A stretch of 64,000 bases of DNA from Candidatus Staskawiczbacteria bacterium (GCA_903845295.1 CAIMWV010000035.1:924-64923); one strand, 5' to 3'; counted from the stretch's first letter, positions 8,102-62,953 are shown. The notes: generated by a model not told the origin, from the sequence alone. Numbers and translations: made by a program.

Positions 8102-9334
8102 TTATTCGTATCTTAATGCCTCTATGGGGTTGAGTTTAGCGGCTCTTTTAGCCGGATAATAGCCGAAGATAATTCCGATACCGGCTGAAACAGCAACCGC
8201 TAAAAGTACTGAGAATAATGAAACTTTTGTCTGGTAGAAATTAAAATATTTGACGCCCCAGGAAATTATCCATCCCAAAAAAACTCCCACTATTCCGCCG
8301 GAAAATGTCAGGACGACCGCCTCTGTCAAAAATTGGAATGTGATATCTTTAGCTTTTGCTCCAATTGCTTTGCGCAGGCCTATTTCTCTTGTCCTTTCTG
8401 TAACTGTGGTAAGCATCATATTCATAATGCCGATTCCGCCCACAAGCAAGGAAATCCCGGCAATGGCTCCAAGCAAAATTGTAAGAGTCTGGCTTACGCT
8501 TGAGATGCTCGACAGTATGTCTGCCTGGTTTTGCACGGTAAAGTCTGCAATCGTCGGGTCTGAAATGTTGTGACGGCTTAATAATAAGCTTGTAACATCA
8601 TTCTGGGCGTTTGTCATCAGATTCGGGCTGCTTATCTGAAGATCAATTTCTGATAGATATTTATTGCCGGAAAAATATCTTTGCGAAACAGTATATGGAA
8701 TATAAATTCTGTCATCTTGGTTTTGAAACCCGCTTCCGCCTTTTGTGTTCGTAACTCCCACAACTTTAAATTCCATTTTATTAATTTTTATTGTCTGCCC
8801 GATTGCATCACTGGCTACAGCGTCAGCTCCAAACAAATCTGTTATGACAGTAGGGCCGAGCACCGCAACTTTTGAAACATTATTTACATCTTGGGAAGAA
8901 ATAAAGGATCCCTGATCAATGCTCAAATTCCTTACTGCAGTATAAGTGTCGCTGGTTCCCATTACTGATGTGTTTGTATTGTTCCCTTTGTAAACCACCT
9001 GGTAGCGTCCCGTAACTTCCGGAGTCATATATTGCACAGAAGAAACTTCGCTTGCAACCGCATCAGCATCATCAATAGTAAGCGACTGGGCTGTTCCTCC
9101 TGCAGAACGAACCGAATAACCAATATTCCTTGCGGCTCCGGGCATTATCATCAGAAGATTAGACCCGGTTGATTCGATGCTGGCTTGAATTGATAGCGTC
9201 GCTCCCTGACCTACAGATACCATAATAATCACAGAGCTTATTCCAATAACAATACCCAAAATAGTGAGACTTGTTCTGGCTTTGTTCGACGATAGCGCTA
9301 AAAATGTTTCTTCTAATGTGTCTGTGAGTTTCAC
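8102..9334 (-). CDS. ABC transporter permease, MacB/FtsX family (GTG start)
   Basis: 410 aa. N-terminal TM helix, large periplasmic domain, C-terminal FtsX-like 3-TM bundle. Confidence 0.85.
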   Translation of the reverse strand: MKLTDTLEETFLALSSNKARTSLTILGIVIGISSVIIMVSVGQGATLSIQASIESTGSNLLMIMPGAARNIGYSVRSAGGTAQSLTIDDADAVASEVSSVQYMTPEVTGRYQVVYKGNNTNTSVMGTSDTYTAVRNLSIDQGSFISSQDVNNVSKVAVLGPTVITDLFGADAVASDAIGQTIKINKMEFKVVGVTNTKGGSGFQNQDDRIYIPYTVSQRYFSGNKYLSEIDLQISSPNLMTNAQNDVTSLLLSRHNISDPTIADFTVQNQADILSSISSVSQTLTILLGAIAGISLLVGGIGIMNMMLTTVTERTREIGLRKAIGAKAKDITFQFLTEAVVLTFSGGIVGVFLGWIISWGVKYFNFYQTKVSLFSVLLAVAVSAGIGIIFGYYPAKRAAKLNPIEALRYE

Positions 9335-9460
9335 CCGTTAGAGGTCTGTCTTTATATGGCTAAATAGTCAATTTTAGACAAACTTTTATATTTAATAAAT
9401 CCCGCCGGTCAGCTAAAAAAATTTTATTAAAAATTTTTCCGCCAAAGACCCCTAACGGGT
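9333..9460. repeat. Inverted-repeat element E1: 15-bp arms ACCCGTTAGAGGTCT / AGACCCCTAACGGGT enclosing about 100 bp of AT-rich DNA. It fills the whole spacer between the ABC ATPase stop and the permease start.
   Basis: The arms are reverse complements with one mismatch. Core CCCGTTAGA / TCTAACGGG is shared with elements at 24912-25046 and 62847-62953. Confidence 0.55.
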
Positions 9461-9461
9461 T

Positions 9462-10184
9462 TCATCGTTTTTTGTGATCTTTGGTGTCGCTTACTATCAG
9501 GCCGTCTTTAAGAGATATAATTCTGTCTGCATGCAGAGCCACATCATGTTCGTGAGTGATGAGAATAATCGTTCTGCCATGTTCTTTGTTAAGTTTTTCA
9601 AAGGTTCCCAAAACGATTTCACCGGTTTTTGAGTCTAGGTTTCCCGTTGGTTCGTCGGCTAAAATTAAAGTCGGGTCATTGACTAATGCTCTGGCGATTG
9701 CAACCCTTTGAATTTGTCCGCCGGAAAGCTGATTAGACAGGTGGTTAAAATATTCTTCATCCAGTCCGGCTGCTTTCAAGGATTTTTTTGCTCTTTTTTC
9801 GCGTTCTTCTCTGGCAACGCCGGTATAAACCAAAGGCAAAGATACGTTTCTTATAGCAGTGGCTCTCGGCAAAAGATTAAACGCCTGAAAAACAAATCCG
9901 ATTTTATTTTTTCTTATATCAGCCAATTCGTCTTCGTTCAATGTTGAGACATCTTTGCCGTCTAAAAAATAAGTTCCGGATGTAGGCGTATCCAGCGCTC
10001 CCAAAATATGCATGAGCGTTGATTTGCCGGAGCCAGAAGGCCCCATAATCGCGACAAATTCTCCGTCTCTTATCGTAAAGCTCACTCCAGAAAGAGCTTT
10101 AAAGCCAACACTTCCTGTCTGATATATTTTTACTATATTTTTGACCTCAATCATGGTATTATGGCGGTCCGCCTGGCCCTCCAA
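9462..10184 (-). CDS. ABC transporter ATP-binding protein (MacB/LolD-type)
   Basis: Walker A GPSGSGKST, signature LSGGQIQRVAIARAL, Walker B ILADEPTGNLD. Confidence 0.9.
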   Translation of the reverse strand: MEGQADRHNTMIEVKNIVKIYQTGSVGFKALSGVSFTIRDGEFVAIMGPSGSGKSTLMHILGALDTPTSGTYFLDGKDVSTLNEDELADIRKNKIGFVFQAFNLLPRATAIRNVSLPLVYTGVAREEREKRAKKSLKAAGLDEEYFNHLSNQLSGGQIQRVAIARALVNDPTLILADEPTGNLDSKTGEIVLGTFEKLNKEHGRTIILITHEHDVALHADRIISLKDGLIVSDTKDHKKR

Positions 10185-11862
10185 TTAGAGTTTGAGTTGC
10201 CTGTCTTGTTGTTCTGCTTGTGCTAGAAGTAGTGCTGGTGGCGGATTTCACGCTGGAAATTGTCCTGGCAACAACCTGATCGCCTTCAGACAACCCGCTG
10301 GTTATTTCTGTATTTGTATTGTCGGCAACGCCTATTTGCACTGTCTTTTGGGTTGGCGCAACTTCAGAAATAAATCCTTGGCTGGCCGCCGGGCTGGTTA
10401 AATCTTGTTTCTGGCTAAGAACTAAAACGTAAGAACTATTATTTTTTGATTTAACTGCGCTGTTGGGCACCGTTAAAACATTTTGTCTTGTATCTGTAAT
10501 AACATTGGCGCTTCCGCTCATGCCCGGTTTTATCTGGCTGTCTATAATATCCAAAGCAATTTTTGCTCCGTAGCTTACTACGCCCTGGCTCACAGTTCCG
10601 ACCGTATCAACATCTATGACAGATCCTGTAGTAGTCAAGTCTGGCAGGGCGTCAAAAGTTATGGTTACTTTCTGGCCTAATTTTATTTTTACAATATCAA
10701 CTTCATTAAAAGAAGTTTCAATAATTTCCTGTTTGGTAACAATCGACCCTAAAACAGCTCCTGAAGAAACCGTGTCCCCAGCTTTAACCGTAGAATCTGA
10801 CGCAGAAATAATGCCATCTATGGGTGCGTATATATAATATTTTGCCAGATTATCTTTGGCATCAGCAAGCGCATTTTCATATTGCTGTATGCTAAGATTT
10901 TGTGATTGTGTATCTACACCAACCTTGGAAAAAGATTCTTCTTTTGTAGCTATATCCGACTTCGCGCTTGAAAGTGCGGCTGCGTCTTTGATAAGTAATG
11001 AAAGAGAATCGCTCAATTGAGTATCCTGTGTTGTGGTTGTTGCTGCCGTTATAGGTGTTGTTAAACTTTTTGAAACAATAATTTTTTGATACATTTGTAC
11101 AAGGTTAGAGGTTTGCCTGATTAAGTCCAGGAATGTTTCAGTAGAATCATAACTTCCACTAATTGCATTTTCAATTTGAGAAGGCTGAGAATTTTTGCTG
11201 AGCGGCCATGTTGTCTCTTCAAGCGCATCTAATTGTGTTTGTATATTTTTGTATTTTTGTTTAGCATCAGTCGTCCAAAAAGTCAGGTCGCTTGGATTAT
11301 TGTCATAAAAACGAACAAAATCGAGGTAATAATTAATATCGCTGTCGCCACCCCTATAACTGCTTTCCAAAAACATACTGTCTAAATTGGCTCTCATGGA
11401 TGTCAAATCATTAAAGGCGGTTGTTAAAGCGTCTAGTCCATTACTATATGACGTGTCAAGTGCATCTTTAGCGGTACCATTGATGTCCTGCGATGATAAT
11501 TGGGCGTTTGTTAAATCATTTTCTGCGCCTTGCACTGCTTTCTGAGCATCTCGCGAGTCAATTTGCGCCATAAGCGTTCCGGCCTTAACTTCCGTATCTT
11601 TTGGGATATTAATATATACAATTTTTCCCGAAACTTCCGGCGCGATGTCTACTTGGTCGGAAGCTGAAACTTGCCCGGTTCCGGAAACAGAGGAAATTAT
11701 TGTTCCTTTTGTGACAGCAGCCAAAACATAACGGGTCACTCCGCTGGTGTTGGTTGATGACCGGTGCCACCAGTATCCTCCGCCTAATAAACATAAAATT
11801 ACTATTACGCTTATTATTTTGTGCTTGAATATAATCTCCTTTATTTTGCCAAAAAAATTCAT
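10159..11862 (-). CDS. MacA/HlyD-like periplasmic adaptor with S/T-rich low-complexity insert and tail
   Basis: N-terminal TM helix, lipoyl-like motifs, C-terminal beta domain (VKPGMSGSANVITD), long S/T-rich tail. Confidence 0.65.
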   Translation of the reverse strand: MNFFGKIKEIIFKHKIISVIVILCLLGGGYWWHRSSTNTSGVTRYVLAAVTKGTIISSVSGTGQVSASDQVDIAPEVSGKIVYINIPKDTEVKAGTLMAQIDSRDAQKAVQGAENDLTNAQLSSQDINGTAKDALDTSYSNGLDALTTAFNDLTSMRANLDSMFLESSYRGGDSDINYYLDFVRFYDNNPSDLTFWTTDAKQKYKNIQTQLDALEETTWPLSKNSQPSQIENAISGSYDSTETFLDLIRQTSNLVQMYQKIIVSKSLTTPITAATTTTQDTQLSDSLSLLIKDAAALSSAKSDIATKEESFSKVGVDTQSQNLSIQQYENALADAKDNLAKYYIYAPIDGIISASDSTVKAGDTVSSGAVLGSIVTKQEIIETSFNEVDIVKIKLGQKVTITFDALPDLTTTGSVIDVDTVGTVSQGVVSYGAKIALDIIDSQIKPGMSGSANVITDTRQNVLTVPNSAVKSKNNSSYVLVLSQKQDLTSPAASQGFISEVAPTQKTVQIGVADNTNTEITSGLSEGDQVVARTISSVKSATSTTSSTSRTTRQATQTLIGGPGGPP

Positions 11863-11881
11863 TTTAAAAAAATCTATGATA

Positions 11882-12400
11882 TTAATTAGATTGAGTATTA
11901 AGTGTTCCTGCTGGCGGATTATTTGTTGGTGGGGTCTTGCTTGAAGGCGCCGGTGGCGCAGGTATAACTCTTATAAGTTCTGCCTGTATTTGGCCTGAAT
12001 TGTCCGGTTCGCCTATAACAACAACGTTGTCATCTATTTTAAGATCGGATAATTTTATATTTTTTCTCTGGTATATGATTGTTGTTTTGTCGCTTACTAA
12101 AATATTCTTTTCAACATTATCCCTGCCTTTTATGGTAAGAACCTGGCCGTTAATCGTAATTATCTGCCCATATATTCCGTTGCCGTTAGTAAATTCATTG
12201 CCCATGAAATCTCCAAAAAATCCGCCCTGGGGCCCGCCGAAATTTCGGTGATATTCGTCCGCCCACCTGAAGGAAAAGTCAGCTTTTTTTGTTCCGACAA
12301 AAACACCCAGACCAAAAACAAAAGCTAAAATAATTAACCCCGCTATGCTTAAAATAACTGTTTTGAATACCTTTGATTCGAAAATATTATTTTTTTCCAT
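11882..12400 (-). CDS. Hypothetical membrane-anchored protein with a Pro-rich C-terminus
   Basis: One TM helix. Directly downstream of the anti-sigma-like gene. Confidence 0.45.
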   Translation of the reverse strand: MEKNNIFESKVFKTVILSIAGLIILAFVFGLGVFVGTKKADFSFRWADEYHRNFGGPQGGFFGDFMGNEFTNGNGIYGQIITINGQVLTIKGRDNVEKNILVSDKTTIIYQRKNIKLSDLKIDDNVVVIGEPDNSGQIQAELIRVIPAPPAPSSKTPPTNNPPAGTLNTQSN

Positions 12401-12783
12401 TAGTTTATCGCTAAGCGACCATTATTTTTAATAATTTTTATATTTTTTATCAGAGACTTAGCCGATTGCAGAAATATCAGCAAAACAGCTAAAAACAATG
12501 CCGCGCTCGCAGCAGGCAAAGTTTCTAAAAGAATCATCGCAAAGCTTTGCCAGTATGTTGCCACTGAAGAAAAATCAGAGAAAATCAAATAAAAGAAATT
12601 AATGAATCCGGATTGGCCGAAATCAGCTAAAAGTATTTTGAGAACCGGCACAAACGCCAATAAAGATCCTGTCAGCATGACAGAAAAAATGATTATCCTT
12701 CTTAAAACCAAAAGACGCTCTTCTTTATGAATGCGCTTTAATATTTTTTCCAGTAATCCTTTTGGCGGGTTTATGGTGGTCAT
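12400..12783 (-). CDS. Membrane protein, putative anti-sigma factor partner of the ECF sigma
   Basis: 127 aa with several TM helices. Follows the ECF sigma gene in the same operon. Assigned by position only. Confidence 0.35.
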   Translation of the reverse strand: MTTINPPKGLLEKILKRIHKEERLLVLRRIIIFSVMLTGSLLAFVPVLKILLADFGQSGFINFFYLIFSDFSSVATYWQSFAMILLETLPAASAALFLAVLLIFLQSAKSLIKNIKIIKNNGRLAIN

Positions 12784-12839
12784 AATGCTAGTAAAATACT
12801 ATCCATAAATTAATACGCTGCACCGGTGAGTTTCGGTTC

Positions 12840-13397
12840 TTAATTTTCTTTTATATTCTTTCTTAAATTTATAAGGCTTCTTCGATACCTGCTTTTGACG
12901 GTATTGACCGATTCCTGGAACGTTTCGGCAATTTCCTTGAAACTCAAGCCGTCGGTGTGCCGCATATTTATAATCTTCTGTTCTTTTTCAGTCAGCCCTT
13001 CAAAGGCCACTAATAAGGTTTTTTTATCGCTAAGTTTTTCTATTAAGTTCAAAGGGGTCGCAACAATATTATCAACCAAAGGATTCTGCCCTTTTTCATT
13101 TTCGAACTTTGAGAATGGTATGCTCTTTTTCTTCCTCAGAAAATCAATTGATGTATTTTTGGCTATCTGGAAAATCCACGGCTTGAAGCTTTTCTCTTGT
13201 TTAAATTTTCTGATATTTTTCCACACTTTGACGAAAACCTCCTGGGTTATATCTTCGGCATCGGCTTCAGTCCCCACATTTTTGTAGACAAAACCATAAA
13301 TTGACTTTAAATACCTGGCAATCAAAATCTCTAGCGACTTTTCTTCGCCCTTCAGATATTGCCGTATTAATTCTTTATCTTCTGATTTTATAGGCAT
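12840..13397 (-). CDS. ECF-subfamily RNA polymerase sigma-70 factor (start taken at MPIKSEDKELIRQ; ORF track extends to 13457)
   Basis: Region 2 (DAEDITQEVFVKVWKNIRKF) and region 4 (LTEKEQKIINMRHTDGLSFKEIAETFQESVNTVKSRYRRS). Confidence 0.8.
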   Translation of the reverse strand: MPIKSEDKELIRQYLKGEEKSLEILIARYLKSIYGFVYKNVGTEADAEDITQEVFVKVWKNIRKFKQEKSFKPWIFQIAKNTSIDFLRKKKSIPFSKFENEKGQNPLVDNIVATPLNLIEKLSDKKTLLVAFEGLTEKEQKIINMRHTDGLSFKEIAETFQESVNTVKSRYRRSLINLRKNIKEN

Positions 13398-13445
13398 TCT
13401 TACATATGCTACCCTTATATACTGCCACAAAAACCGCTTTTTTAA

Positions 13446-13458
13446 AATGTCGCACAAT
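13446..13458. repeat. Copy a of the 13-bp palindromic motif (AATGTCGCACAAT; consensus ATTGT-CGC-ACAAT)
   Basis: Intergenic, between GDH and the ECF sigma gene. Confidence 0.7.
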
Positions 13459-13494
13459 AAATATTTCGCAACATTTTATTAAAATAATGTTTAA

Positions 13495-14625
13495 TTAATA
13501 CCTCGCCTGTTTCTTCGTAATTCTGTTTACAGCTATTTCCATTCCCACGTCCCGCGGGTTTTTGTTTTCACTGACGCTTTTCTTCAATATAATCCTGACA
13601 TTTTTCGTAATTTTTTTATCTATTGTATCCATCATTCTTTTAGGATTATAACCGCGGTATTCAGCATAAGAAGAAATCACTCCTCCGGCATTAGCAATGA
13701 AATCTGGAACGACCCAGACTCCCTTCTTGAAAAATTCTTTTTCTATTTCTTCTGACATCGGAATATTACCTGCTTCAACAATCATCTTAGTTTTAATTTT
13801 GTCCTTGTTGCTATTGTTAATGACGTTTGTGACAGACGCTGGGATTAAAATATCTGTTGGAACCTCCCAAAATTTTTCAGCTGAAATTTTTTGGCCGTAG
13901 GGATAATCTTTCAAAGTTTTTTTATCTTTTATGATTTTTTCCAGTACTTCGTGATCAAATCCGCTTTCCTGGAAAATTGTGGTTTCCGCGTCAGCTAATG
14001 CAATAACTTTAGCCCCCATTTGTGTTAAAAATTTATAGGCGAATGTCCCTACGTTTCCAAAGCCATGGATGGCTACTCTGGCTCCGTTCATGTTTATTCC
14101 AAGAATTTCTGCCGCAGTTTCTGCGGTTTTTGCAACTCCAAATCCGGTGCTTCCATATTCATGCGGAATTCCGCATTTTTCGCCCGTCTTGCCGAATGCC
14201 TTCATACAGTAATTAGCCGGCTTGCCGGTAGCCGACCTCCAATCCCCTGTTGCCTCTACAAACCATTGCATTTCCTGCTCGCCTGTCTGGACGTCGGGAG
14301 CTGCAATATATTTTTTAGGGGTTAGCAATTTAACAGCCTTTGCAAAGCTTTGGACAAACTTCTTTTTCAGTTCAGGAGTTCCGCCTTTCCATATTATCCC
14401 GGCCTTAGCTCCGCCGAAAGGCAGATCAGCCAAAGCATTTTTAAATGTCATTGTCCTGGCCAGCCTGAAAACCTCCTCGGCCGTCACATTGGGAGTCATT
14501 CTGATCCCCCCTTTCCCGGGTCCTAAAACAGTATTGTCTATAACTAAAAAACCCTCCATTTTTAATTCGGGGTCATAAATATTTATTACATATTCGGGAC
14601 CAAACTCGTCTTTTAGGATTTCCAT
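13495..14625 (-). CDS. Glu/Leu/Phe/Val dehydrogenase family (glutamate dehydrogenase-like)
   Basis: 376 aa. Motif KGGIRMTP...GGAKAGI and NAD(P) Rossmann GFGNVG. Confidence 0.85.
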   Translation of the reverse strand: MEILKDEFGPEYVINIYDPELKMEGFLVIDNTVLGPGKGGIRMTPNVTAEEVFRLARTMTFKNALADLPFGGAKAGIIWKGGTPELKKKFVQSFAKAVKLLTPKKYIAAPDVQTGEQEMQWFVEATGDWRSATGKPANYCMKAFGKTGEKCGIPHEYGSTGFGVAKTAETAAEILGINMNGARVAIHGFGNVGTFAYKFLTQMGAKVIALADAETTIFQESGFDHEVLEKIIKDKKTLKDYPYGQKISAEKFWEVPTDILIPASVTNVINNSNKDKIKTKMIVEAGNIPMSEEIEKEFFKKGVWVVPDFIANAGGVISSYAEYRGYNPKRMMDTIDKKITKNVRIILKKSVSENKNPRDVGMEIAVNRITKKQARY

Positions 14626-14700
14626 ATTTGTTTTATATTTCTCATTTTTTAATTATTCATCAAGTTAATTATATCAGTACGTATTTTTTCTGCAAAAGTG

Positions 14701-24911: not shown

Positions 24912-25046
24912 ATAACCCCGTTAGAAGTTTGCCCCCGCAAAATTATTATTTTGTATTCCAGGATTTTAATAGCAATCTATGGCGACAAAAGTTTAGAAAA
25001 ACTTTTGTCGCGTCGGCATTTGATTATAAACTTCTAACGGGGTATA
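24912..25046. repeat. Inverted-repeat element E2: 16-bp perfect arms ACCCCGTTAGAAGTTT / AAACTTCTAACGGGGT enclosing about 100 bp, including a perfect 13-bp inner hairpin (GCGACAAAAGTTT / AAACTTTTGTCGC at 24961-24992). It sits in the divergent guaB / pgi intergenic region.
   Basis: Perfect terminal inverted repeats. Core CCCGTTAGA shared with E1 and E3. Confidence 0.55.
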
Positions 25047-25208
25047 ATATTAAAATACAATTGATAAGTAAATTAAATAAATTATAGAAATTACTTCTTA
25101 ATTTATATAATTAATCGTTCGGTCGGATAACAATATTTTAGCTCGCACGAATAAAATAAATTTTATTCGCGTCTCGCTCAATATTCTTCTCCTCCCTCCC
25201 TCATATTT

Positions 25209-30730: not shown

Positions 30731-30744
30731 GGAATTTGCTGCGG

Positions 30745-30820
30745 GACCTGCCTGCCGGCAGGCTTTGATTCTAACCAAGGTACTAGCCTTCAAAGGGCCA
30801 TGTCTACTTCACCCCGCCAA
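30745..30820 (-). pseudogene. Degenerate tandem copy of tRNA-Gln (retains the anticodon arm CCTTCAAAGGGCC and a T-arm-like segment; D-arm replaced; contains an inserted GCCTGCCGGCAGGC palindrome)
   Basis: About 45 nt are near-identical to the intact tRNA-Gln 80 bp away, but the acceptor and D-arm pairing is lost. Confidence 0.5.
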
Positions 30821-30845
30821 ATTTATCTTTACTTTTGAGCAAAGC

Positions 30846-30916
30846 TGCGGGACTTGGATTCGAACCAAGATACTAGCCTTCAAAGGGCCATGTCCTACCA
30901 TTAGACGATCCCGCAG
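30846..30916 (-). tRNA. tRNA-Gln (anticodon TTG)
   Basis: Manual fold: acceptor TGCGGGA/TCCCGCA, D-arm GTCT/GGAC, anticodon stem TGGCC/GGCTA with loop CTTTGAA, T-arm CTTGG-TTCGAAT-CCAAG, discriminator G. Confidence 0.9.
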
Positions 30917-31160
30917 CTTTGCTCAAAAACCTTTTTAATGTGGCACCGCCATGCCAACTTTTGATTTGCTTTTCTCTTTGCCTAGCTTTCCCGTAATCTT
31001 TATATTCTTGAAAATAAATTATGCTCCATAGAGTGCCAAGTTTAGTCGAATATACTTCCCCGCGATTGTGTTTCAACAAACGCTTTTTCGGGTCTAACTT
31101 TGTAATCCCTACATAATGTTTTCCTTTGTCATTTTCAAGAATATAAAGATTACAATTCAT
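30873..31160 (-). CDS. GIY-YIG nuclease superfamily protein (COG2827/YhbQ-like). Start taken at MNCNLYIL. The C-terminal ~15 codons overlap tRNA-Gln on the same strand.
   Basis: GIY-YIG core LYILENDKGKHYVGITKLDPKKRLLKHN...YSTKLGTLWSIIYFQEYKDYGKARQREKQIKSW. Confidence 0.65.
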   Translation of the reverse strand: MNCNLYILENDKGKHYVGITKLDPKKRLLKHNRGEVYSTKLGTLWSIIYFQEYKDYGKARQREKQIKSWHGGATLKRFLSKAAGSSNGRTWPFEG

Positions 31161-31174
31161 CAATTTAAATTTGG

Positions 31175-31201
31175 CGGGGCAAGTTAGACGATCCCGCAAT
31201 A
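31175..31201 (-). repeat. Duplicate of the first 15 nt of tRNA-Gln (TGCGGGATCGTCTAA) lying upstream of the GIY-YIG gene
   Basis: Exact 15-nt match to the tRNA-Gln 5' end followed by divergence. It falls inside the over-extended N-terminus of the ORF-track GIY-YIG ORF. Confidence 0.45.
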
Positions 31202-50660: not shown

Positions 50661-50760
50661 TATTACATTTTACTACAAAAATACCTCTGCCGGTATGGGG
50701 ATAACTATTTAAACAAAAATAGACAAAATAACGTTTTTGTTCTATAATAAAATAAATTTT

Positions 50761-50835
50761 GGCCCCATCGTCTAGCCTGGTCTAGGACATTTGCTTCTCA
50801 AGCAAGTAACACCAGTTCAAATCTGGTTGGGGCCA
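50761..50835 (+). tRNA. tRNA-Glu (anticodon CTC), CCA encoded at 50836-50838
   Basis: Acceptor GGCCCCA/TGGGGCC, anticodon stem TTTGC/GCAAG with loop TTCTCAA, T-arm ACCAG-TTCAAAT-CTGGT. Confidence 0.9.
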
Positions 50836-50862
50836 CCAATTATTTTATATTGAATACGGATT

Positions 50863-55922: not shown

Positions 55923-56000
55923 AATTACAAATGAGGGAAAAATGAAAATTCATTTTCATTTTGACCGAATGCGGAATTATATAAATTACGGCTGCAATTT

Positions 56001-56432
56001 CTATATTCCTAAACCTCCTAATTTTGAAACAATTTCGTCAACTCCTTTTTCCGCTGCTTTTTTATAAGTTTCCCATTTTTCAGAGTCCCATATTTCTAAT
56101 CTGTTGGACAAGCCGCATATAACAACGTTTTTTTTCAGGCCGGCATAATCTTTCAGATAATCCGGTACAAGTATTCTTCCTAATTTATCTAAAGATACTT
56201 CCATGGCGCCGGCCAGAATCATTCTGGTAAAAGACCTTGCTTCCGCCTGGCTTATCGTCAGGCTTCCCAGCTTGTCTGACATTATTTTCCATTCAGCTTC
56301 CGTATAAACGGCAAGACAGCCCTCAATTCCCCTTGTGATTATTACTTTATCTCCTAGCTCGCCTCTGAATTTTGCAGGCAAAGCTAATCGCTTTTTATTA
56401 TCAATTGTATGTTCGTATTGGCCGATAAGCAT
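56001..56432 (-). CDS. mraZ: Transcriptional regulator MraZ
   Basis: Tandem MraZ/SpoVT-AbrB-like domains (MLIGQYEHTIDNKKRLALPAKFR... and RLEIWD). Confidence 0.9.
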   Translation of the reverse strand: MLIGQYEHTIDNKKRLALPAKFRGELGDKVIITRGIEGCLAVYTEAEWKIMSDKLGSLTISQAEARSFTRMILAGAMEVSLDKLGRILVPDYLKDYAGLKKNVVICGLSNRLEIWDSEKWETYKKAAEKGVDEIVSKLGGLGI

Positions 56433-56460
56433 ATATAAAGATATTCACTTGATTTGATAG

Positions 56461-56494
56461 TTCTCCCACATTTATCCACAGATTCCCACTTCAT
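56461..56494 (-). promoter_or_regulatory. Three direct repeats GTGGG-N5-GTGGA-N5-GTGGG (minus strand) with exact 10-bp spacing, just downstream of a TTGACT-N18-TATAAA promoter candidate (56499-56528); candidate MraZ operator
   Basis: CCCAC at 56465, TCCAC at 56475, CCCAC at 56485 on the plus strand. The arrangement resembles the GTGGN direct-repeat MraZ binding sites described in E. coli. Confidence 0.5.
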
Positions 56495-56605
56495 CTTATT
56501 TATAGTCCACTTTATGATACTTAGTCAACACCTTTGGCCAAAGACCTATTTTGTTCGTAAATAGGCCTATTTTTCCACCAGTTATCCACAGTTGAATTTT
56601 CGATA

Positions 56606-56618
56606 ATTGTCGCACAAT
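56606..56618. repeat. Copy f of the 13-bp palindromic motif (ATTGTCGCACAAT, perfect)
   Basis: Between two TTATCCACA boxes in the leuA / mraZ intergenic region. Confidence 0.7.
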
Positions 56619-56697
56619 GAGGGTTATCCACAAATTTGTAATAAAATAAGCTCCACCGAAGTGAAGCTTCAGCTGTTGAGGTTTTACACTCTAACAA

Positions 56698-58362
56698 CTA
56701 TGCTTTACTGCCCCTGTTAAGGGCACTTATAACCGCCTTGATCGAGGCCTGCTCGATGTTCGTATCTACTCCCGCTCCCCAACACATGCTTCCGTCAGGG
56801 AATTGAAGTTTGATATAAGAAATCGCGCTGGCCTCTTGGCCTGCTCCAAGCGCATGTTCAGCTTGATCAAGAACGCGTACATGGCAAATCTTTTCCAGTG
56901 AGCGGACGAATGCATCAATCGGCCCATTACCTTCTCCAGCCAACTGAAGATCCCTGTCTTCAAAAACAACGACTGACTGACAGTGGCATTTGCCAATTCC
57001 TGTGTCGGCCTCTGTATTGGACTGAAAGTGTTCGAGCCAGTAAGGAGCACCGCGCTCAACATATTCTGTCCAAAGCATTGCTTTCAATTCTGCGGATGTG
57101 ACTTCGCGGCCCAGAGCATCGATTTTCTTGCCCGCTATTGCACCGAATTCGCGCAGCATATCCTTAGGCAGATGGAGCCCGCACTCATTTTCCAGAAGCC
57201 ATGCTATGCCTCCCTTGCCAGATTGCCCGTTGACTCTTATCACTTCTTTATATTCCCGGCCGATGTCCCGAGGATCTATGGAAAGATAGGGCACATTCCA
57301 CGGAGCATTCCCGTCTTGGTCTCTTGCCCGCAATCCTTTGCGGATTGCGTCCTGGTGAGAACCGGAAAACGCAGTAAATACCAGCTCTCCGCTGTAAGGC
57401 TGGCGGGGAGGCACTTTCATCCCGGTACAGCGCTCATATATCTCGCGCAAAGAATCGATATCGGAAAAATCCAATTCCGGATCGATTCCCTGGCTGAACA
57501 AATTAAGCGCCACCGTCACAATGTCCAGATTTCCTGTCCGCTCCCCGTTTCCGAAAAGCGTGCCTTCCACGCGCTCTGCGCCTGCAAGCAGTCCAAGTTC
57601 TGTAGCAGCGACTCCTGTCCCGCGGTCATTGTGCGTATGAAGGCTTATGACTGCGCAATCGCGCCGGGACATGTTGCGGCAGAACCACTCGATCTGGTCT
57701 GCATGGACATTCGGAGTTGCCATCTGGACGGTATCGGGCAGATTGAGGATTATTTTATGTTGAGGCGTCGGCCCCCACACATCCATTACCGCCTCGCAAA
57801 CCTCGAGGGAGAAGTCTACCTCAGTCGCCGAAAAACTCTCTGGCGAATATTCAAAGGAAACTTCCGTTCCTTGAAGCCCTGCTGCATACTCCTTGACCCA
57901 CTTTGTCCCCTGCGCCGCCAGATCAACCACTTGCGGCTTCTCAAATCCAAAAACGATCTTGCGCTGAGCCGGCGAAGTAGAGTTGTATAAATGGATGGTC
58001 GCTTTATTTGCGCCAGCCAAAGACTCTGCTGTCCGCCTGATCAGGTCATCTCTAGCCTGCGTGAGAACCTGTATTGTCACGTCGCTCGGGATTAAGCGGC
58101 CTTCAATCAAGCGGCGGGTAAATCCGTATTCTGTGGGAGAAGCGGACGGAAATCCGATTTCAATTTCTTTGAATCCGCACTTGACCAGCATTAGAAACAT
58201 CTCTAGCTTCTGCTCGACGGTCATAGGTACCGCCAGTGCCTGGTTCCCATCGCGCAGATCAACGCTGCACCACCTTGGTGCTTTCGTGGTTGTCCGGCTC
58301 GGCCATTGGCGATCTTTGAGTTGAATGCCGTGAAACTGGATGTATTTGCCTGTCGGGTTCAT
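56698..58362 (-). CDS. leuA: 2-isopropylmalate synthase, long form with C-terminal LeuA allosteric/dimerisation domain
   Basis: HMGL-like TIM barrel (RDGNQAL...HTHNDRGTG) and C-terminal LeuA-dimer region. The gene is visibly more GC-rich than its neighbours and the GC-rich stretch contains many spurious overlapping ORFs on both strands in the ORF track. Confidence 0.9.
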   Translation of the reverse strand: MNPTGKYIQFHGIQLKDRQWPSRTTTKAPRWCSVDLRDGNQALAVPMTVEQKLEMFLMLVKCGFKEIEIGFPSASPTEYGFTRRLIEGRLIPSDVTIQVLTQARDDLIRRTAESLAGANKATIHLYNSTSPAQRKIVFGFEKPQVVDLAAQGTKWVKEYAAGLQGTEVSFEYSPESFSATEVDFSLEVCEAVMDVWGPTPQHKIILNLPDTVQMATPNVHADQIEWFCRNMSRRDCAVISLHTHNDRGTGVAATELGLLAGAERVEGTLFGNGERTGNLDIVTVALNLFSQGIDPELDFSDIDSLREIYERCTGMKVPPRQPYSGELVFTAFSGSHQDAIRKGLRARDQDGNAPWNVPYLSIDPRDIGREYKEVIRVNGQSGKGGIAWLLENECGLHLPKDMLREFGAIAGKKIDALGREVTSAELKAMLWTEYVERGAPYWLEHFQSNTEADTGIGKCHCQSVVVFEDRDLQLAGEGNGPIDAFVRSLEKICHVRVLDQAEHALGAGQEASAISYIKLQFPDGSMCWGAGVDTNIEQASIKAVISALNRGSKA

Positions 58363-58471
58363 GGCGAAATCCTTTCATTCGATCGGGTTGTTTGCCACAC
58401 TAAGATTGTAAAGGTGCTATCCCTTACACTCACGCCAAAATTTTCAAAAACTTTGGCGTGAGTGTAAAAAT

Positions 58472-58496
58472 CAAAAATCCTCCATCAGGAGGATTT
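58472..58496 (-). terminator. Attenuator terminator in the leuA leader (AATCCTCC-TGAT-GGAGGATT + UUUUUGAUUUUU on the minus strand)
   Basis: 8-bp stem followed by a U-tract on the leuA-sense strand. About 25 nt downstream of the leader peptide stop and 110 nt upstream of the leuA ATG. Confidence 0.5.
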
Positions 58497-58519
58497 TTGA
58501 TATAGAATTTATATTTGAT

Positions 58520-58621
58520 TTATATTCTTTTATCTTTATCAAAAACCTCCTGGCTTACCAAAAGCAGGCTTAACAACAAATTCAGCTGGAGGTTTAATTT
58601 TTTATCGCCTATATTTTGCAT
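58520..58621 (-). CDS. Leu-rich leader peptide (33 aa: MQNIGDKKLNLQLNLLLSLLLVSQEVFDKDKRI), probably leaderless or near-leaderless, upstream of leuA
   Basis: Manual translation of the minus strand. 9 Leu in a 14-residue stretch. The ATG lies about 7 nt after the -10 AATAAT of a TTGACA-N17-AATAAT promoter (58629-58657). Confidence 0.45.
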   Translation of the reverse strand: MQNIGDKKLNLQLNLLLSLLLVSQEVFDKDKRI

Positions 58622-58663
58622 ATGATGTATTATTGCAAAAACAAGTTATTCTGTCAACACCTT

Positions 58664-58676
58664 ATTGTCGCACAAT
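58664..58676. repeat. Copy g of the 13-bp palindromic motif (ATTGTCGCACAAT, perfect)
   Basis: 13 bp after the Clp-like gene stop and 7 bp upstream of the -35 box of the leuA-leader promoter. Confidence 0.7.
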
Positions 58677-58692
58677 AAAATAAAACACAATG

Positions 58693-61305
58693 CTAACCTT
58701 GCTTAGCCGGATTTACAATCAACTCAAAATTTTCCGGGTTGACTTCAATTTTATCCCCTTTTTTTATCTTATCGGATAAGAAAGCTTCTGCAACGGCATT
58801 TTCCACTTTATCCTGGATGACTCTTCTCATTTCTCTGGCGCCGAATTCCGGCTTGTAAGACAATTCAACGATCTTTTCTTTCAAAGGCTCGGTAATTTTT
58901 AAATCGATGTCTTTTTCTTTCAAATTTTTCTGGAGCGCCGATAAAGACAATTGAGCTATCTGCATTAAATTATCTTTTGTCAGGGGATGGAAAATTACAG
59001 TGGCATCAAAACGGTTTACAAATTCCGGCCTGAAAATATTTTTTTCGAAGATGGCATTCAATAATTTATCTTTTTCCAACGCCTGGTTGGATTCCACCTG
59101 TTTAAAAATCATGTCTGCGCCGGCATTTGATGTGCATATGATTATCGTGTTTGCAAAAACAACCTTCCTGCCCTGGCCGTCTGTTATGTGCCCCTCATCT
59201 AAAACTTGCAAAAAGAGATTTAAGATATTCGGATGGGCTTTTTCAATTTCATCCAGCAAAATGAGGGAAAACGGAGTTTCCCTGACAGGAGTCGTCAAAA
59301 GCCCTTGCATTTCTACGGGCGAAGTAGCTCCGATCAGCCTTGGGATATCTGAAATCGCCTGGAACTCTGACATATCGAGAGTTATCATTTTCTTTTCTGA
59401 ACCGAAATAAATTTGGGCCAGCGCTTTTGCGGTCTCGGTTTTTCCGACACCGGTAGGACCTAAAAATAAGAATGTCCCCATGGGCCTGGTTTTTGAGCTG
59501 ATTCCCATCCTTGCCCTCCTCATGGCGATTGATATTTCTTTTACTGCTTCTTCTTGGTTTACAATTCTGCTGTGAATCAGATTTTCTAAATTAAGCAAAA
59601 CTTCTTTTTCTTTAACTGCCATTTTACCGACTGGTATATTGGTTTTTTTAGAAACAATTTCAGCTATGTGGTGGGGCAAAACAACTTTTTCTTTTAACTT
59701 TTGCACATAAACAGCCGATTCGTCTAAAACATCCAGGGCTTTTTTAGGAAAAGGCAAAGAAGGCATATACCGCGCGGTCAAATTTACGATCTCGCGGATG
59801 GCCGGATACAACACCAAAATTTTGTGCGCATATTCTAATTCTAAAGCAGCTGATTGCAAAATATTTATTGTTTCCGCTTCGGTAACCTCCGAAACCTCAA
59901 CCTTTTCAAATAAATTTGCAAAGGAAGGATTCTCTTCTATATTTTTATGGAGTCCCTCATACGATGTTATGCCAATGAATTGGAAACTGGGTATCGGCAG
60001 GTACTTTGAAAGCATCCCGGATATGTCAAAAGCTCCTGCTTTTTGTACTTTTTGCCCGACAAAATTTTCAAGGTCATCAATGACTAAAATTACGTTCCCC
60101 GACGAAGCAACCTCCGCAAACATCTGGTCTAAAGCAGATTCCAATTTTTCAAAATCCGGTATTCGCGCGGCCAACAAAACAGCATCGAGCTCTACTACTC
60201 TTTTGTTATTTAATTGAGGCAAAGACATCCCTAAATAACATCTTTGGGCAAGAGCTTGGATTATACTTTTTCTGCCGGTTCCGGCATCTCCGACAATCAA
60301 AACATTGGCCAGACTGGATTTAGCCAAAATCACCTCGGTCTCCTCTATTTCTTTTTCATGGCCTATGATTTCCCTGAATTTCCATTTTGAAACAATTTTT
60401 TTCCAGTCAACAGAAAATTTGTCTAGAGTTATGGTATATCCGGATGAAAAATTTTTGCCCAAAGACCCTTTTCTCAATAAATTTTCGTATGTCCAAAATT
60501 TTCTGTTCTTTTCCATCAGATCTTCTGCGGAGTCTATCCATAAGGTTAAATCCTTGACATCTTCCGGCTTTAAATTAAAATCAACCAAAGTTTTTTTGAA
60601 AAAATCGTCTTCTGATGCTAGGGCAACTAAAATTTCCTTTTCCCCGATACTACAGTGCTGTCTGTCGGTTGAAACTTTAAGCGCAAGCTCTATTGTTTTT
60701 TGAAAGTCGTCTGAAAATGAATCCCCGGCAATATCCTGTTTTTGCATTTTTTCCAAATAATTTTTTATGTCAGCCTGCAACTTTTTAGGATTCAACCCCA
60801 ACCGTATGCAAATTAAGTTTATATCTTTGCTAAATTTTACAGCAGAATAAAAGAGCGAAGTTGAATTAATTGGAACTCTCTTCTTTTTACAAAAATCAAT
60901 TGAATCTAAAACAATTTTCGCTGCCTCAAAATTTAAAAATTCTGCCAGATTATAACTGGCTGGATGTGCGGCTGCATTCAAAATATCTATTTTATTTTCC
61001 GGCTTTTTAATTTTCAGTTCTGTAAACAAATCAATGTTCCAAAAAATAAGATAAAGAGACAGGAACAAAGCCAGCGTTTTTGCTGCAGAATATCCGGAAG
61101 TAAGATTTAAGAAAGAAAATCCTACAAGCAAAAATGCAATCAGAAACAGAATCAAAAAAACATTCTTTAAAATTTTGGCAAACTTAAATAAGGGAAAATT
61201 TTCCCTTCTTACTGCCTTAAAAATCTCTGTATTTTCTAAAGCAAAATTAAATGGCATACACTTAGTCCTATTGTTTAATAAAAAAATAAAATCCCGCTGT
61301 TGCAA
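58693..61305 (-). CDS. ClpA/ClpB/ClpC-family AAA+ ATPase with an N-terminal membrane anchor and a degenerate first Walker A
   Basis: Two N-terminal TM helices. Clp_N-like repeats. D1 GDAGTGRKS is non-canonical. D2 is canonical (GPTGVGKTETAKALA, sensor and Arg-finger regions, ClpB_D2-small). Confidence 0.7.
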   Translation of the reverse strand: MQQRDFIFLLNNRTKCMPFNFALENTEIFKAVRRENFPLFKFAKILKNVFLILFLIAFLLVGFSFLNLTSGYSAAKTLALFLSLYLIFWNIDLFTELKIKKPENKIDILNAAAHPASYNLAEFLNFEAAKIVLDSIDFCKKKRVPINSTSLFYSAVKFSKDINLICIRLGLNPKKLQADIKNYLEKMQKQDIAGDSFSDDFQKTIELALKVSTDRQHCSIGEKEILVALASEDDFFKKTLVDFNLKPEDVKDLTLWIDSAEDLMEKNRKFWTYENLLRKGSLGKNFSSGYTITLDKFSVDWKKIVSKWKFREIIGHEKEIEETEVILAKSSLANVLIVGDAGTGRKSIIQALAQRCYLGMSLPQLNNKRVVELDAVLLAARIPDFEKLESALDQMFAEVASSGNVILVIDDLENFVGQKVQKAGAFDISGMLSKYLPIPSFQFIGITSYEGLHKNIEENPSFANLFEKVEVSEVTEAETINILQSAALELEYAHKILVLYPAIREIVNLTARYMPSLPFPKKALDVLDESAVYVQKLKEKVVLPHHIAEIVSKKTNIPVGKMAVKEKEVLLNLENLIHSRIVNQEEAVKEISIAMRRARMGISSKTRPMGTFLFLGPTGVGKTETAKALAQIYFGSEKKMITLDMSEFQAISDIPRLIGATSPVEMQGLLTTPVRETPFSLILLDEIEKAHPNILNLFLQVLDEGHITDGQGRKVVFANTIIICTSNAGADMIFKQVESNQALEKDKLLNAIFEKNIFRPEFVNRFDATVIFHPLTKDNLMQIAQLSLSALQKNLKEKDIDLKITEPLKEKIVELSYKPEFGAREMRRVIQDKVENAVAEAFLSDKIKKGDKIEVNPENFELIVNPAKQG

Positions 61306-61678
61306 TAAATGGAATCAATATCCATAACAAAAAAAATATCAGCCCGGCAAAAATAACAAAAATTTGGAAAAAAATTCCGACTGCAATTAAGATAATCCTG
61401 ACTAAGGCTCCTAAAATTCTGGAAATTGCATTTGAAATAAGGGTGCTAAAAAATTCTCCAACATCAAATCCTTTAGGATAATTCCATTTATATTTGCGCC
61501 ACGGAGCAAAAAGCGATTTTAATAAGAGTGGAACTGAAAAATAATTTAGGGCAAATAAAATATAGTTTTTCCAAACTCCCAGTAAAAATTTCGGCATTTC
61601 ATAAAAATGCCAAAATAACCACACTACAAAAATATTTTTCTGCCCGCCGGCAGACATAGTTTTCTCTGCGATTTCCAT
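61268..61678 (-). CDS. Hypothetical polytopic small membrane protein
   Basis: 136 aa, 3-4 predicted TM helices, no motif recognised. Confidence 0.4.
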   Translation of the reverse strand: MEIAEKTMSAGGQKNIFVVWLFWHFYEMPKFLLGVWKNYILFALNYFSVPLLLKSLFAPWRKYKWNYPKGFDVGEFFSTLISNAISRILGALVRIILIAVGIFFQIFVIFAGLIFFLLWILIPFIATAGFYFFIKQ

Positions 61679-61679
61679 A

Positions 61680-62006
61680 TTATTTAATTAATTTTACACC
61701 AATTTCAGCAATCTTGCCACCGCCATAAATCAAAATCCATATTAAAAGCAGCCAAGTCACGAGGTTCAAAGTATTATCTATAAAATCAACTGGCAAAACT
61801 TTTATCAAAGCGTTTTGAATTTGCCCTTGGATATCAAGAGCGCTCACGTTTTGATTTACTTTTAGGGAAGTTGGCCTCACAAAAACCTGCGCTGGCATTG
61901 CCTTACCTGTAAAAATTCCATAAGTCTGCCATAACGGCAAAACTATTAACAAAACCCCGATAATTAACAAAATGTAACCTACAATTTTATTTGAACTCAT
62001 TGTCAT
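61680..62006 (-). CDS. Hypothetical small membrane protein (2 TM)
   Basis: 108 aa. Hydrophobic N- and C-terminal helices. Confidence 0.4.
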   Translation of the reverse strand: MTMSSNKIVGYILLIIGVLLIVLPLWQTYGIFTGKAMPAQVFVRPTSLKVNQNVSALDIQGQIQNALIKVLPVDFIDNTLNLVTWLLLIWILIYGGGKIAEIGVKLIK

Positions 62007-62385
62007 TTAATAACTCCTGGCGGATGTCTTCGGGGATTGGTATTTCCTCACCGGGTTTCGAAATCCCCGGATACCGCCAGGCGCTAATTATTTTTCGAAC
62101 CTGCCCTGAGCCGTGCCGAAGGGATTCTTTTACGTCTTTATACATTAACCAAATTTCTCCCGGGGCTTTTTTCGGCCTTTGCCAAGCCTTAGACAGGCTT
62201 ATTTGCTTTGTTTTGAAATAAACTTTGTTTGTTTTCATCGCGGCTAAGGTTCCAAGCACAATCCCCTTTTCTTTCCGTTCCGGCCTGTAAAGTATGCCCA
62301 GCAACTTTTGTTTCGAAAGCCCGTACTGTTTCATTTTTATTTTAGAATGTTCGGTCCAAAAAAGTTTTCTAAAATTACCGGCCAT
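61987..62385 (-). CDS. Hypothetical basic protein
   Basis: 132 aa, K/R-rich, no recognised domain. Confidence 0.35.
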   Translation of the reverse strand: MAGNFRKLFWTEHSKIKMKQYGLSKQKLLGILYRPERKEKGIVLGTLAAMKTNKVYFKTKQISLSKAWQRPKKAPGEIWLMYKDVKESLRHGSGQVRKIISAWRYPGISKPGEEIPIPEDIRQELLNDNEFK

Positions 62386-62735
62386 CAGTTCACTATTTTA
62401 ACTTTGTTTAAATCAAAGACCTCCTTTACTTCAATAACTACTGCATTTCTAACCTTATATTCTTTATTTTTCTGAACGCACATCTCAAAATATTTCCCCG
62501 AAGAAAAAATCTCAACATGACCTTTAATTCTAAAATACCCTCCAATAACGCAAATCCGGGGATTTTCTTTAAGGTTTTTAATCGCAGTCACCATTTGGCA
62601 ATCTGCAATCAATAATTTATCATGAAAAAAACCTAACGAAATTACAACATTCGCATTGGGATTTCCGCTCCGCGATGATGTGGCTAAAACTAATTCTTTG
62701 CCTTCTTTAAAATTATTTTTCCAGTTTATTGTCAT
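62385..62735 (-). CDS. Pyridoxamine 5'-phosphate oxidase-like FMN-binding split-barrel family protein
   Basis: 116 aa. Pattern VLATSSRSGNPNANVVISLGF...RICVIGGYFRIKGHVEI is typical of the PNPOx-like fold. Confidence 0.55.
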   Translation of the reverse strand: MTINWKNNFKEGKELVLATSSRSGNPNANVVISLGFFHDKLLIADCQMVTAIKNLKENPRICVIGGYFRIKGHVEIFSSGKYFEMCVQKNKEYKVRNAVVIEVKEVFDLNKVKIVN

Positions 62736-62846
62736 AAAAATTTGTGGGCGCGTGTGGACTCGAAAAGTTGCCCGAAGGCATCGCCTCCTCGCTTCGCTCG
62801 TCGCGATTCAGGGAGTCCCGCTTTGCGGGACGACCTCACCGACTTG

Positions 62847-62953
62847 CCCCGTTAGATATTTTTGTGGGCATTATAGGGGTCGAACCTATGGCCTTTCCGA
62901 TGTGAACGGAACGCTCTACCGCTGAGCTAAATGCCCATAGATATCTAACGGGG
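62847..62953. repeat. Inverted-repeat element E3: 13-bp perfect arms CCCCGTTAGATAT / ATATCTAACGGGG that enclose tRNA-Val
   Basis: Perfect inverted repeat. Same CCCGTTAGA core as E1 and E2. Confidence 0.55.
62865..62936 (-). tRNA. tRNA-Val (anticodon CAC)
   Basis: Acceptor GGGCATT/AATGCCC, D-arm GCTC-AGCGGTA-GAGC, anticodon stem TTCCG/CGGAA with loop TTCACAT, T-arm ATAGG-TTCGACC-CCTAT, discriminator A. Confidence 0.9.

Follow-up and report, generated by a model that had tools for sequence, protein, structure and literature searches.

A 64,000-nucleotide stretch of DNA from Candidatus Staskawiczbacteria bacterium (GCA_903845295.1, CAIMWV010000035.1:924-64923), referred to here as the window, carries three short elements, E1, E2, and E3, that are probably non-autonomous members of a tiny mobile family, in which the terminal inverted repeats (TIRs) begin with CCCCGTTAGA and a full-length form of about 280 bp encodes a GIY-YIG nuclease, the protein inferred to mobilise them. 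Elements of this family are insertions that add about 4 nt, usually as a direct duplication, and prefer T-N-N-A, their ends are common to coding and non-coding copies, and the coding copies specify a conserved GIY-YIG protein. The original prediction, made from the sequence of the window, had described three inverted-repeat-bounded segments with a shared core, and their positions are confirmed:

E1, 9334..9459: 126-nt non-coding element with ends CCCGTTAGA (9334-9342) and CCTAACGGG (9451-9459)
E2, 24916..25042: 127-nt non-coding element with the canonical ends CCCCGTTAGA and TCTAACGGGG, flanked by ATAA and TATA
E3, 62847..62953: 107-nt element with canonical ends and a transfer RNA (tRNA) cargo, flanked by CTTG and TGAA (+ strand)

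None of the three contains a protein gene, and their TIRs span 13-16 bp. The arms of E1 pair over 15 bp with one mismatch, and its ends are decayed versions of CCCCGTTAGA and TCTAACGGGG; the inverted repeat of E2 is perfect over 16 bp (24915-24930 and 25028-25043), and the arms of E3 (62847-62864 and 62936-62953) form an 18-nt pair at 89% in which the first 13 bp are perfect. The exact 9-mer CCCGTTAGA occurs five times in the window against 0.18 expected, and none of 100 shuffled sequences has as many. When one mismatch is tolerated, nine are counted against 8.0 expected, which is not significant, and the signal thus lies in the exact core and its pairing. The five exact cores and one single-mismatch core make up three inverted pairs, 87-108 nt apart. 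Folding and a scan of the whole genome and relatives had been suggested as checks: as RNA, all three elements fold far below shuffled controls (z -3.9 to -8.4), and the same ends recur at at least 120 loci elsewhere.

E1 lies, as predicted, inside an operon, where it fills the gap between the stop codon of an ABC ATPase gene (9462-9464) and the GTG start codon of a gene for a MacB/FtsX-type permease (9332-9334); the two genes are on the minus strand. Homologues likewise assign the window to Candidatus Staskawiczbacteria, and four independent relatives from this group (L248/L249, L250, L251, and L253; L248 and L249 encode the same permease protein and are counted once) have an empty site. In them no spacer separates the ATPase stop from the permease ATG, the two abutting or overlapping (e.g., ...AAAAAACGTGTATGAAATTAAAAG), and their permeases are, where measured, 87%, 84%, and 72% identical to that of the window. 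Across the junction, the window reads ...cgATGAAA[126 nt]TGAAACTCAC, or in longer form ...AAAAAACGATGAAA[126 nt]TGAAACTCACAG, and the relatives read ...ATGAAATTA... Because the relatives lack the spacer, E1 is a 126-nt insertion that duplicated TGAA(A) in the start-codon region, leaving two copies:

9329..9333: downstream duplication copy, TTTCA on the + strand and TGAAA on the gene strand
9460..9464: upstream duplication copy, which contains the original permease ATG (9463-9465, minus strand), overlapping the ATPase TGA stop (9462-9464)

The permease gene survived because the last G of the element and the duplicated TG rebuild a start codon, the GTG at 9332-9334 (minus strand), so that the open reading frame (ORF) starts at 9334. 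The N-terminus of the window permease, VKLTDTLEETFLA, aligns from residue 1 with MKFEDILEETFL in the relatives.

The subfamily to which E1 belongs is about 130 nt long and comprises 19 full-length relatives of 65-77% identity in many lineages of the candidate phyla radiation (CPR). They share the outer stem, an internal TAACGGGG, and an A/T hairpin with compensatory changes. A start codon (ATGAA, ATGGA, or ATGAG) lies under the element in 13 of these 19 copies and TATG in two more, and the copies on start codons have a uniform orientation relative to the downstream gene. Among 294 canonical copies, 69 have an ORF of at least 80 aa starting at, or within a few bases of, the last G of the element, usually as G+TG. 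This placement is attributed mainly to survivorship, in that an insertion which rebuilds the start is tolerated in gene-dense genomes, although survivorship does not account for the orientation bias. A stretch of 25 nt in E1 is 88% identical to the 3′ end of a GIY-YIG gene from the FFFAKDF subfamily. In each of the E1-like copies on start codons (e.g., L040:3739-3871, L075:39-168, and L118:1501-1633), a short upstream ORF runs from the old ATG into the element.

E3 encloses a tRNA-Val, as the original prediction had it; both ARAGORN and Rfam (70 bits) call tRNA-Val(CAC) inside the stem. It interrupts a second tRNA-Val, resident at the site, and the parts of this arrangement are as follows:

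62864..62936, minus strand: intact cargo tRNA-Val(CAC), inside E3
62958..62993, minus strand: 5′ half of the resident tRNA-Val (positions 1-35), identical to the intact gene at L254:4455-4529
62745..62846, minus strand: 3′ part of the resident tRNA-Val, with CA, an extra AG, T, the 3′ strand of the anticodon stem, and the variable loop

An intact tRNA-Val(CAC) stands between the same two genes in three relatives (L254, L255, and L256), one of them with 95% ClpC identity, and the window flanks together with both outer tRNA-Val halves match this intact gene base for base. The insertion point falls in the anticodon loop at positions 35/36, and the inserted sequence consists of TTCA, found at 62954-62957 between E3 and the resident 5′ half, followed by E3 and AG. 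Since the cargo tRNA is identical to the resident gene at just 57 of 76 positions (in the comparison with L254), it arrived with E3. The T-loop and the 3′ strand of the acceptor stem of the resident gene are found at 62745-62764, beyond a second insertion in its T-stem (62765-62831), an unrelated GC-rich segment of 63-67 nt, GTCCCGCAAAGCGGGAC...GCCTTCGGGCAACTT, in place of part of the T-stem found in L254, with two small hairpins and no further copy in 1.75 Mb of comparison sequence. After this second insertion, the resident copy is dead. E3 was also considered as an intron-containing tRNA, of group I or of the archaeal bulge-helix-bulge type, and was rejected as such: there is no Rfam match and no such geometry, and the gene is uninterrupted in relatives. 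Intron_gpI has no match in 62600-63200 at E-values up to 10.

E2 lies in the divergent guaB/pgi region (genes for IMPDH and bact-PGI) and carries the nested 13-bp hairpin that the prediction had placed there. It is identical in the strain contig L002 and has three relatives, two copies in L051 (67% identity) and one in L225, which include another Staskawiczbacteria metagenome-assembled genome (MAG). That E2 is an insertion like E1 and E3 is suggested by its family membership. A sigma-70-like promoter match faces pgi at 25020-25048 (TTGATT, 17 nt, TATAAT; 10 of 12 consensus positions), with the -35 box within E2 and the -10 box from its right flank, and may be a hybrid promoter made by the insertion.

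The short copies behave as MITEs, or miniature inverted-repeat transposable elements. E1, E2, and E3 are short, bounded by TIRs, and without a protein gene, E3 carrying a tRNA; there are many copies, at least 240 loci over two scans, and a coding element that shares their ends. E1 has both a target duplication and an empty site, and E3 has three empty sites, with 6 nt gained and unlike flanks. The original prediction had argued against MITE copies, on the ground that the interiors are unrelated. This is true of E1, E2, and E3 among themselves, but each interior has full-length relatives elsewhere (19, 3, and 5, respectively, at 63-78% identity; those of E3 are L041, L120, L061, L074, and L142), and the argument also fails on the absence of E1 and E3 from the same sites in related genomes and on the 4-nt flank duplications. 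Empty sites and flank duplications likewise point away from integron attC sites, and no integrase or cassette array was noticed in the ORF list of the window, although no dedicated attC test was made.

The wider distribution of short copies was established by a scan for CCCCGTTAGA-N(85-115)-TCTAACGGGG, with perfect 10-nt ends, over one genome per species (596 Gb), which found at least 120 loci; about 17 chance matches are estimated for the whole collection if equal base frequencies are assumed. The matches listed are all MAGs and belong to Omnitrophota, many Patescibacteria lineages, Planctomycetota, Spirochaetia, Thermodesulfovibrionia, Bdellovibrionales, the deltaproteobacterial lineages Syntrophobacter and Syntrophorhabdus, and others, and several loci contain two to four copies. 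Identical 4-nt flanks, such as TGAA, TAAA, TTTA, TTCA, and TTGA, border 75 of the 135 non-nested short copies among the matches listed, and the consensus of the flanks is T-N-N-A on both sides (T 77-83%, A 77-79%). One short copy is nested in the GIY-YIG gene of L005, where removal of the element and 4 nt alone restores the ..YYEAC / DA.. spacing. The same pattern of ends has no match in 2.9 million viral contigs, and tblastn against PLSDB plasmids gave none. Rfam covariance models, run on the window and 18 related loci at the gathering threshold, report tRNAs only, and in E-value mode give nothing credible for E1, E2, and E3; no description of the element family was found in Rfam or, by sequence or topic, in the literature.

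A second scan, made without selection on content, looked in metagenome contigs for these ends at a spacing of 250-280 nt and yielded at least 120 loci. The few pairs of about 280 bp in the first data set each consist of one GIY-YIG ORF, and among the matches listed in the second, 83 of the 125 copies of 270-300 bp contain a single GIY-YIG ORF of about 90 aa that runs from end to end. Its consensus is ..YVYVLQS.KDGKWYTG.T.DLRKRF.EHN.GKV.STK.RGPF.LIYYEAC.N..DA..REKYLKSGMGKRYLKNRLKRFLSLTG, and the residues at least 90% identical across the 83 sequences are Y, Y.G, R, H, TK, P, Y.E, DA, and RE.YLK. The ORF is fused to the element: the right TIR encodes the C-terminus of the protein (SLTG or YLTG), with the stop codon directly after it or, in one subfamily, a TAA stop inside it (TTC TAA CGGGG). 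The proteins match Pfam PF01541 with E-values of 1e-13 to 2e-17, and two canonical ones score 60-64 bits against a cut-off of 22.6, which places them in the GIY-YIG superfamily; a weak T5orf172 match stands beside PF01541. The nearest solved chains, 1ZG2 (E=4e-4) and 1YWL (E=0.11), are UPF0213 proteins of unknown function. The median ratio of nonsynonymous to synonymous substitution rates (dN/dS) is 0.13 over 245 pairs and below 1 in all of them, and the GIY-YIG proteins are thus maintained and not decaying.

The full-length copies have TIRs of 12-13 bp, in which positions 11-12 differ between subfamilies and remain complementary. This covariation suggests either that the ends pair, as a DNA hairpin or cruciform open to recognition by a structure-selective GIY-YIG enzyme, or that every protein subfamily recognises ends of its own. 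TIR subtype follows protein subfamily, E1 and E2 (AGAAGT type) corresponding to FFFAKDF and E3 (AGATAT type) to KNYLTG, and GIY-YIG ORFs bounded by other TIRs also exist. No other protein and no larger unit with the same ends occurs in the 1.75 Mb of comparison sequence. The proteins are 83-95 aa long and consist of the catalytic domain only. They match the group I intron endonuclease model TIGR01453 weakly (28 bits against a cut-off of 56) and differ from I-TevI-type homing endonucleases in having no DNA-binding domain, no intron signature, and no viral matches. No transposase of the DDE, DEDD, HUH, serine, or tyrosine type that would place these elements in an insertion sequence (IS) family was found, the GIY-YIG ORF being the sole one.

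In five diverged contigs, a RhuM-like ORF is interrupted by a full-length copy at one and the same codon (..GYPDDWI | KKRMRGIAIREELTDEW..):

Copies within the RhuM-like ORF: L128 1910-2187, L137 6027-6304, L167 458-739, L185 2156-2433, L237 1166-1444

Both halves of this ORF are open, and the removal that would keep the frame differs between copies (+0/3, +1/4, and +2/5). Repeated homing could explain the shared site, as could an old insertion that left the gene split.

The window also contains a related element with different TIRs, which carries both a GIY-YIG ORF and a tRNA-Gln and has the same flanks as E3:

30812..31179, minus strand: 368-bp GIY-YIG and tRNA-Gln element with TIRs CCCCGCCAAATTT and AAATTTGGCGGGG, flanked by CTTG and TGAA
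30873-31160: GIY-YIG ORF of this element (PF01541, Pfam GIY-YIG E=9.5e-13, 48.7 bits)
30844-30915: intact inner tRNA-Gln
30739..31198, minus strand: resident outer tRNA-Gln, split in its D-loop, of which 30739-30811 and 31180-31198 remain

The outer tRNA-Gln was read from the sequence and compared with the inner one, no empty site having been obtained. It is decayed, with TTAGAAT as its T-loop and a 16-nt palindrome between T-stem and acceptor stem. The tRNA-Gln has U1-A72, a bacterial trait, which was among the grounds for rejecting the tRNA-intron reading of E3.

Several smaller observations attach to this element. The GC-rich perfect palindrome CCTGCC(TGCC)GGCAGGCAGG lies at the junction of T-stem and acceptor stem of the outer tRNA-Gln (30745-30765) and is also found in unrelated metagenome loci (L054:~2280-2305, L113:~2505-2530, and L124:~8493-8518); given this recurrence, it may represent one more tiny repeated element. 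The window GIY-YIG ORF contains a perfect inverted repeat of 23 nt (30993-31015 and 31131-31153), much longer than chance would produce, whose arms cover the codons of ..CNLYILEN.. and ..IIYFQEYKDY.. On either side of the inner tRNA-Gln, a 12-bp inverted repeat directly prolongs the acceptor stem (30833-30852 and 30909-30928), giving 20 nt in all at 100% complementarity; it does not contain the CCCGTTAGA core. A single-sequence AlphaFold model of the window GIY-YIG protein is poor (predicted local distance difference test score, pLDDT, of 55).

Copies with a tRNA are few: the idea that all copies enclose one was rejected when ARAGORN, run on 40 loci, found few that do. Every tRNA-bearing copy examined lies in a disrupted tRNA of the same identity:

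E3 (window): inner Val(CAC), outer Val(CAC)
L120: inner Val(CAC), outer Val, otherwise intact
L061: inner Val(TAC), outer Val(TAC)
L041: inner Val(GAC), outer gene reduced to a Val-like 3′ half
L111: inner Ala(UGC), outer Ala(UGC)
L074: inner Ala(CGC), outer gene a decayed Ala-like gene
Window 30812-31179: inner Gln, outer Gln

When the outer tRNAs were rebuilt by removal of the element and 0-8 nt per side, ARAGORN recognised a near-intact gene in L120 and none for the two outer genes of the window. At L142:3540-3990, CCCCGTTAGA-ended units and tRNA-Ala fragments are nested around one intact tRNA-Ala(cgc), which suggests repeated insertion into each newly delivered tRNA. CPR genomes usually carry one gene per tRNA, and the pattern therefore suggests that an insertion survives only if it delivers a matching tRNA, and that the tRNA-carrying lineage returns to tRNA loops.

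In the mechanism proposed for this family, the GIY-YIG protein of a full-length copy with the matching TIR subtype would act in trans, recognise the paired or hairpin ends, and make staggered cuts at T-N-N-A, and host repair or ligation would complete the move. The earlier idea of a hairpin recognised by a specific protein stays live; the ends are TIRs of elements that encode a GIY-YIG nuclease. The cargo tRNA would stand in for the broken resident gene, and the insertion of E3 would have been tolerated for this reason. The transcribed stems would be by-products only, which may attract RNase III.

Several points weigh against this explanation. Identical flanks border only 31 of the 125 long copies among the matches listed, and 27 of the 83 GIY-YIG copies have TTCA...TAAA or TTTA...TGAA flanks, which are not duplications and in part supply the ORF with a stop codon, TAA or TGA, immediately behind the TIR; the flank patterns do not yield exact cut positions. 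One possibility for the odd flanks is that flank bases are carried from the donor site, as piggyBac does. E3 gains 6 nt and not 4, and the tRNA-borne copies have constant CTTG/TGAA flanks. No full-length copy with CCCCGTTAGA ends is present in the window, and no empty E2 site was obtained, guaB homologues being at most 76% identical and gene order not conserved. Strain-level contigs show no presence/absence polymorphism of E1, E2, or the tRNA-Gln element, the differences among them being ones of gene calling, so that recent activity in this population is not demonstrated; all comparison sequences are metagenome assemblies. As for the protein, it is a catalytic domain of about 90 aa in which no part for binding DNA or joining strands is obvious, and it is its association with the elements from which a role in moving them may be inferred. 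We know of no GIY-YIG enzyme that performs transposition or joins DNA.

This last point favours the main alternative, which appears unlikely, namely that the elements are MITEs which an unseen conventional transposase mobilises in trans (e.g., a DDE enzyme making 4-bp duplications) and that the GIY-YIG gene is a frequent passenger. TIRs and a 4-bp duplication are typical of DDE transposons such as IS5, IS1380, and piggyBac, and the cargo varies, being tRNA-Val, tRNA-Ala, tRNA-Gln, or none. Against this, the GIY-YIG ORF is the sole content of two thirds of the 270-300-bp copies listed from a content-blind scan, it is fused to the right TIR and under strong purifying selection, and its subfamilies are tracked by TIR subtype; the 1.75 Mb of comparison sequence contains no larger unit with these ends, and GIY-YIG ORFs occur with other TIRs as well. 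Removal from RNA offers another explanation, under which the elements are introns or intervening sequences and the interrupted genes stay functional. In Patescibacteria tRNAs, group I introns also occupy position 35/36 (PMC13011429), the outer tRNA of L120 is otherwise intact, and the RhuM-like halves are open in five contigs. This reading is nevertheless very unlikely: there is no group I or II signature, the T-stem of the outer tRNA-Val of the window is destroyed and the T-loop of its outer tRNA-Gln mutated, the RhuM frame offsets are inconsistent between copies, and the cargo tRNA always has the identity of the broken one, a duplication that would be needless if splicing restored the gene.

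The original prediction had named first, among its options, an RNase III-type processing stem; in this reading the stems would be a conserved host signal for RNA processing, a duplex that releases an enclosed tRNA or small RNA. The long stable predicted RNA stems, the position of E1 inside an operon, with which it is certainly transcribed, and the bracketing of a tRNA by the E3 stem fit such a role, as does the analogy with 23S ribosomal RNA (rRNA) intervening sequences removed by RNase III (PMC11270868). As the origin of the elements it is contradicted by the empty sites and the flank duplications, E1 and E3 being no ancestral signals since the same loci are empty in close relatives. Moreover, no Rfam family matches, the constant paired part is just 12-13 bp in full-length copies, mismatches, examined for a sign of RNA-level selection, show no strand bias of G-U over A-C (77 vs. 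67), and the other tRNAs of the window and of its relatives, which the original prediction had proposed to check for the same stems, lack the core. A host processing signal is thus highly improbable, though cleavage of the transcribed hairpins by RNase III may occur as a side effect. That the three are merely coincidental local hairpins, as a short shared core with nothing further might suggest, is next to impossible in view of the excess of exact cores in the window and of hundreds of same-ended copies elsewhere.

The GIY-YIG family proposed here resembles several known systems without coinciding with any. Bacterial MITEs include the Correia elements of Neisseria and Nezha and Chunjie of cyanobacteria. 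The present short copies share with them a length of 105-135 bp, TIRs, a short target duplication, the lack of coding capacity, many copies, intergenic or gene-end sites, and hairpin RNA, but the sole coding relative with their ends encodes a GIY-YIG nuclease and no known transposase, the same 10-nt end is found across several phyla, and some copies carry a tRNA gene. REPIN/RAYT systems consist of REP hairpin doublets and a Y1 HUH transposase. In both cases a small nuclease gene is flanked by inverted repeats that are also dispersed as non-coding hairpin copies; here, in contrast, the nuclease is GIY-YIG and not HUH Y1, there are flank duplications, and insertion extends to genes, tRNAs, and start codons. 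GIY-YIG homing endonucleases are exemplified by I-TevI and by T4 SegB, which lies in a tRNA gene cluster. The catalytic domain is common to both groups, and some lineages here revisit the same tRNA site in a homing-like way, whereas the present proteins of about 90 aa come with TIRs, flank duplications, and non-coding derivatives; lacking a DNA-binding domain and an intron, the elements fail the classical test for such enzymes. The piggyBac transposon has a 4-bp TTAA target duplication and ends that begin with a run of C. The T..A duplication of 4 bp and the C run at the ends recall piggyBac/IS1380, a likeness that is a lead and not a test, but no DDE transposase is associated and the target, T-N-N-A, is looser. 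With no known transposase, the elements lack the feature that defines all IS families; they are TIR-bounded, target-duplicating mobile DNA with MITE derivatives.

A further parallel is offered by 23S rRNA intervening sequences. Ralph and McClelland reportedly described in 1993 such sequences in Leptospira, with an ORF and inverted ends. Like the present elements, these are small, paired-ended insertions into genes for structural RNAs, in some cases with one small ORF; here, insertion has instead hit a start codon, tRNA genes, and an intergenic region, and the window contains no rRNA. GIY-YIG ORFs have also been reported in CPR rRNA insertions that are "not similar to either intron" and were left uncharacterised (Tsurumaki et al., PMC11270868), and these non-intron insertions probably belong to the same family as the present elements.

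If the GIY-YIG protein mobilises these elements, a nuclease class would be added to the short list of enzymes of DNA transposition, and the unit would be extremely compact and open to study or engineering. The chances are about even that the family represents a new class of prokaryotic transposable element, whose sole protein is a GIY-YIG nuclease of about 90 aa, with non-coding derivatives across uncultivated phyla and tRNA cassettes that replace what they break; in that case, about 280 bp would be the smallest size of an autonomous DNA transposon. Such a family would account for role-less small GIY-YIG ORFs in annotations of CPR, Omnitrophota, and Planctomycetota, including those of non-intron rRNA insertions (PMC11270868), and for tRNA genes that are split or seem to be missing, unusual GTG starts after a hairpin of about 130 nt, and contig breaks at repeats. 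In the window itself, new annotation is due at the permease start and for the tRNA-Val and tRNA-Gln genes. The tRNA-carrying copies offer a clear example from nature of a selfish element making good its own damage and bear on horizontal tRNA gene replacement in reduced genomes with single-copy tRNAs.

Two minor repeats complete the description. The tRNA-Glu(ctc) of the window has a weaker, A/T-rich flanking repeat (50747-50767 and 50828-50848; 21 nt, 86%) that does not contain the CCCGTTAGA core. At L129:6003-6400, left ends (GTCAACCCCGTTAGAA) follow one another four times at 113-nt intervals, and this repeat is a tandem array of element ends and not a set of separate insertions.

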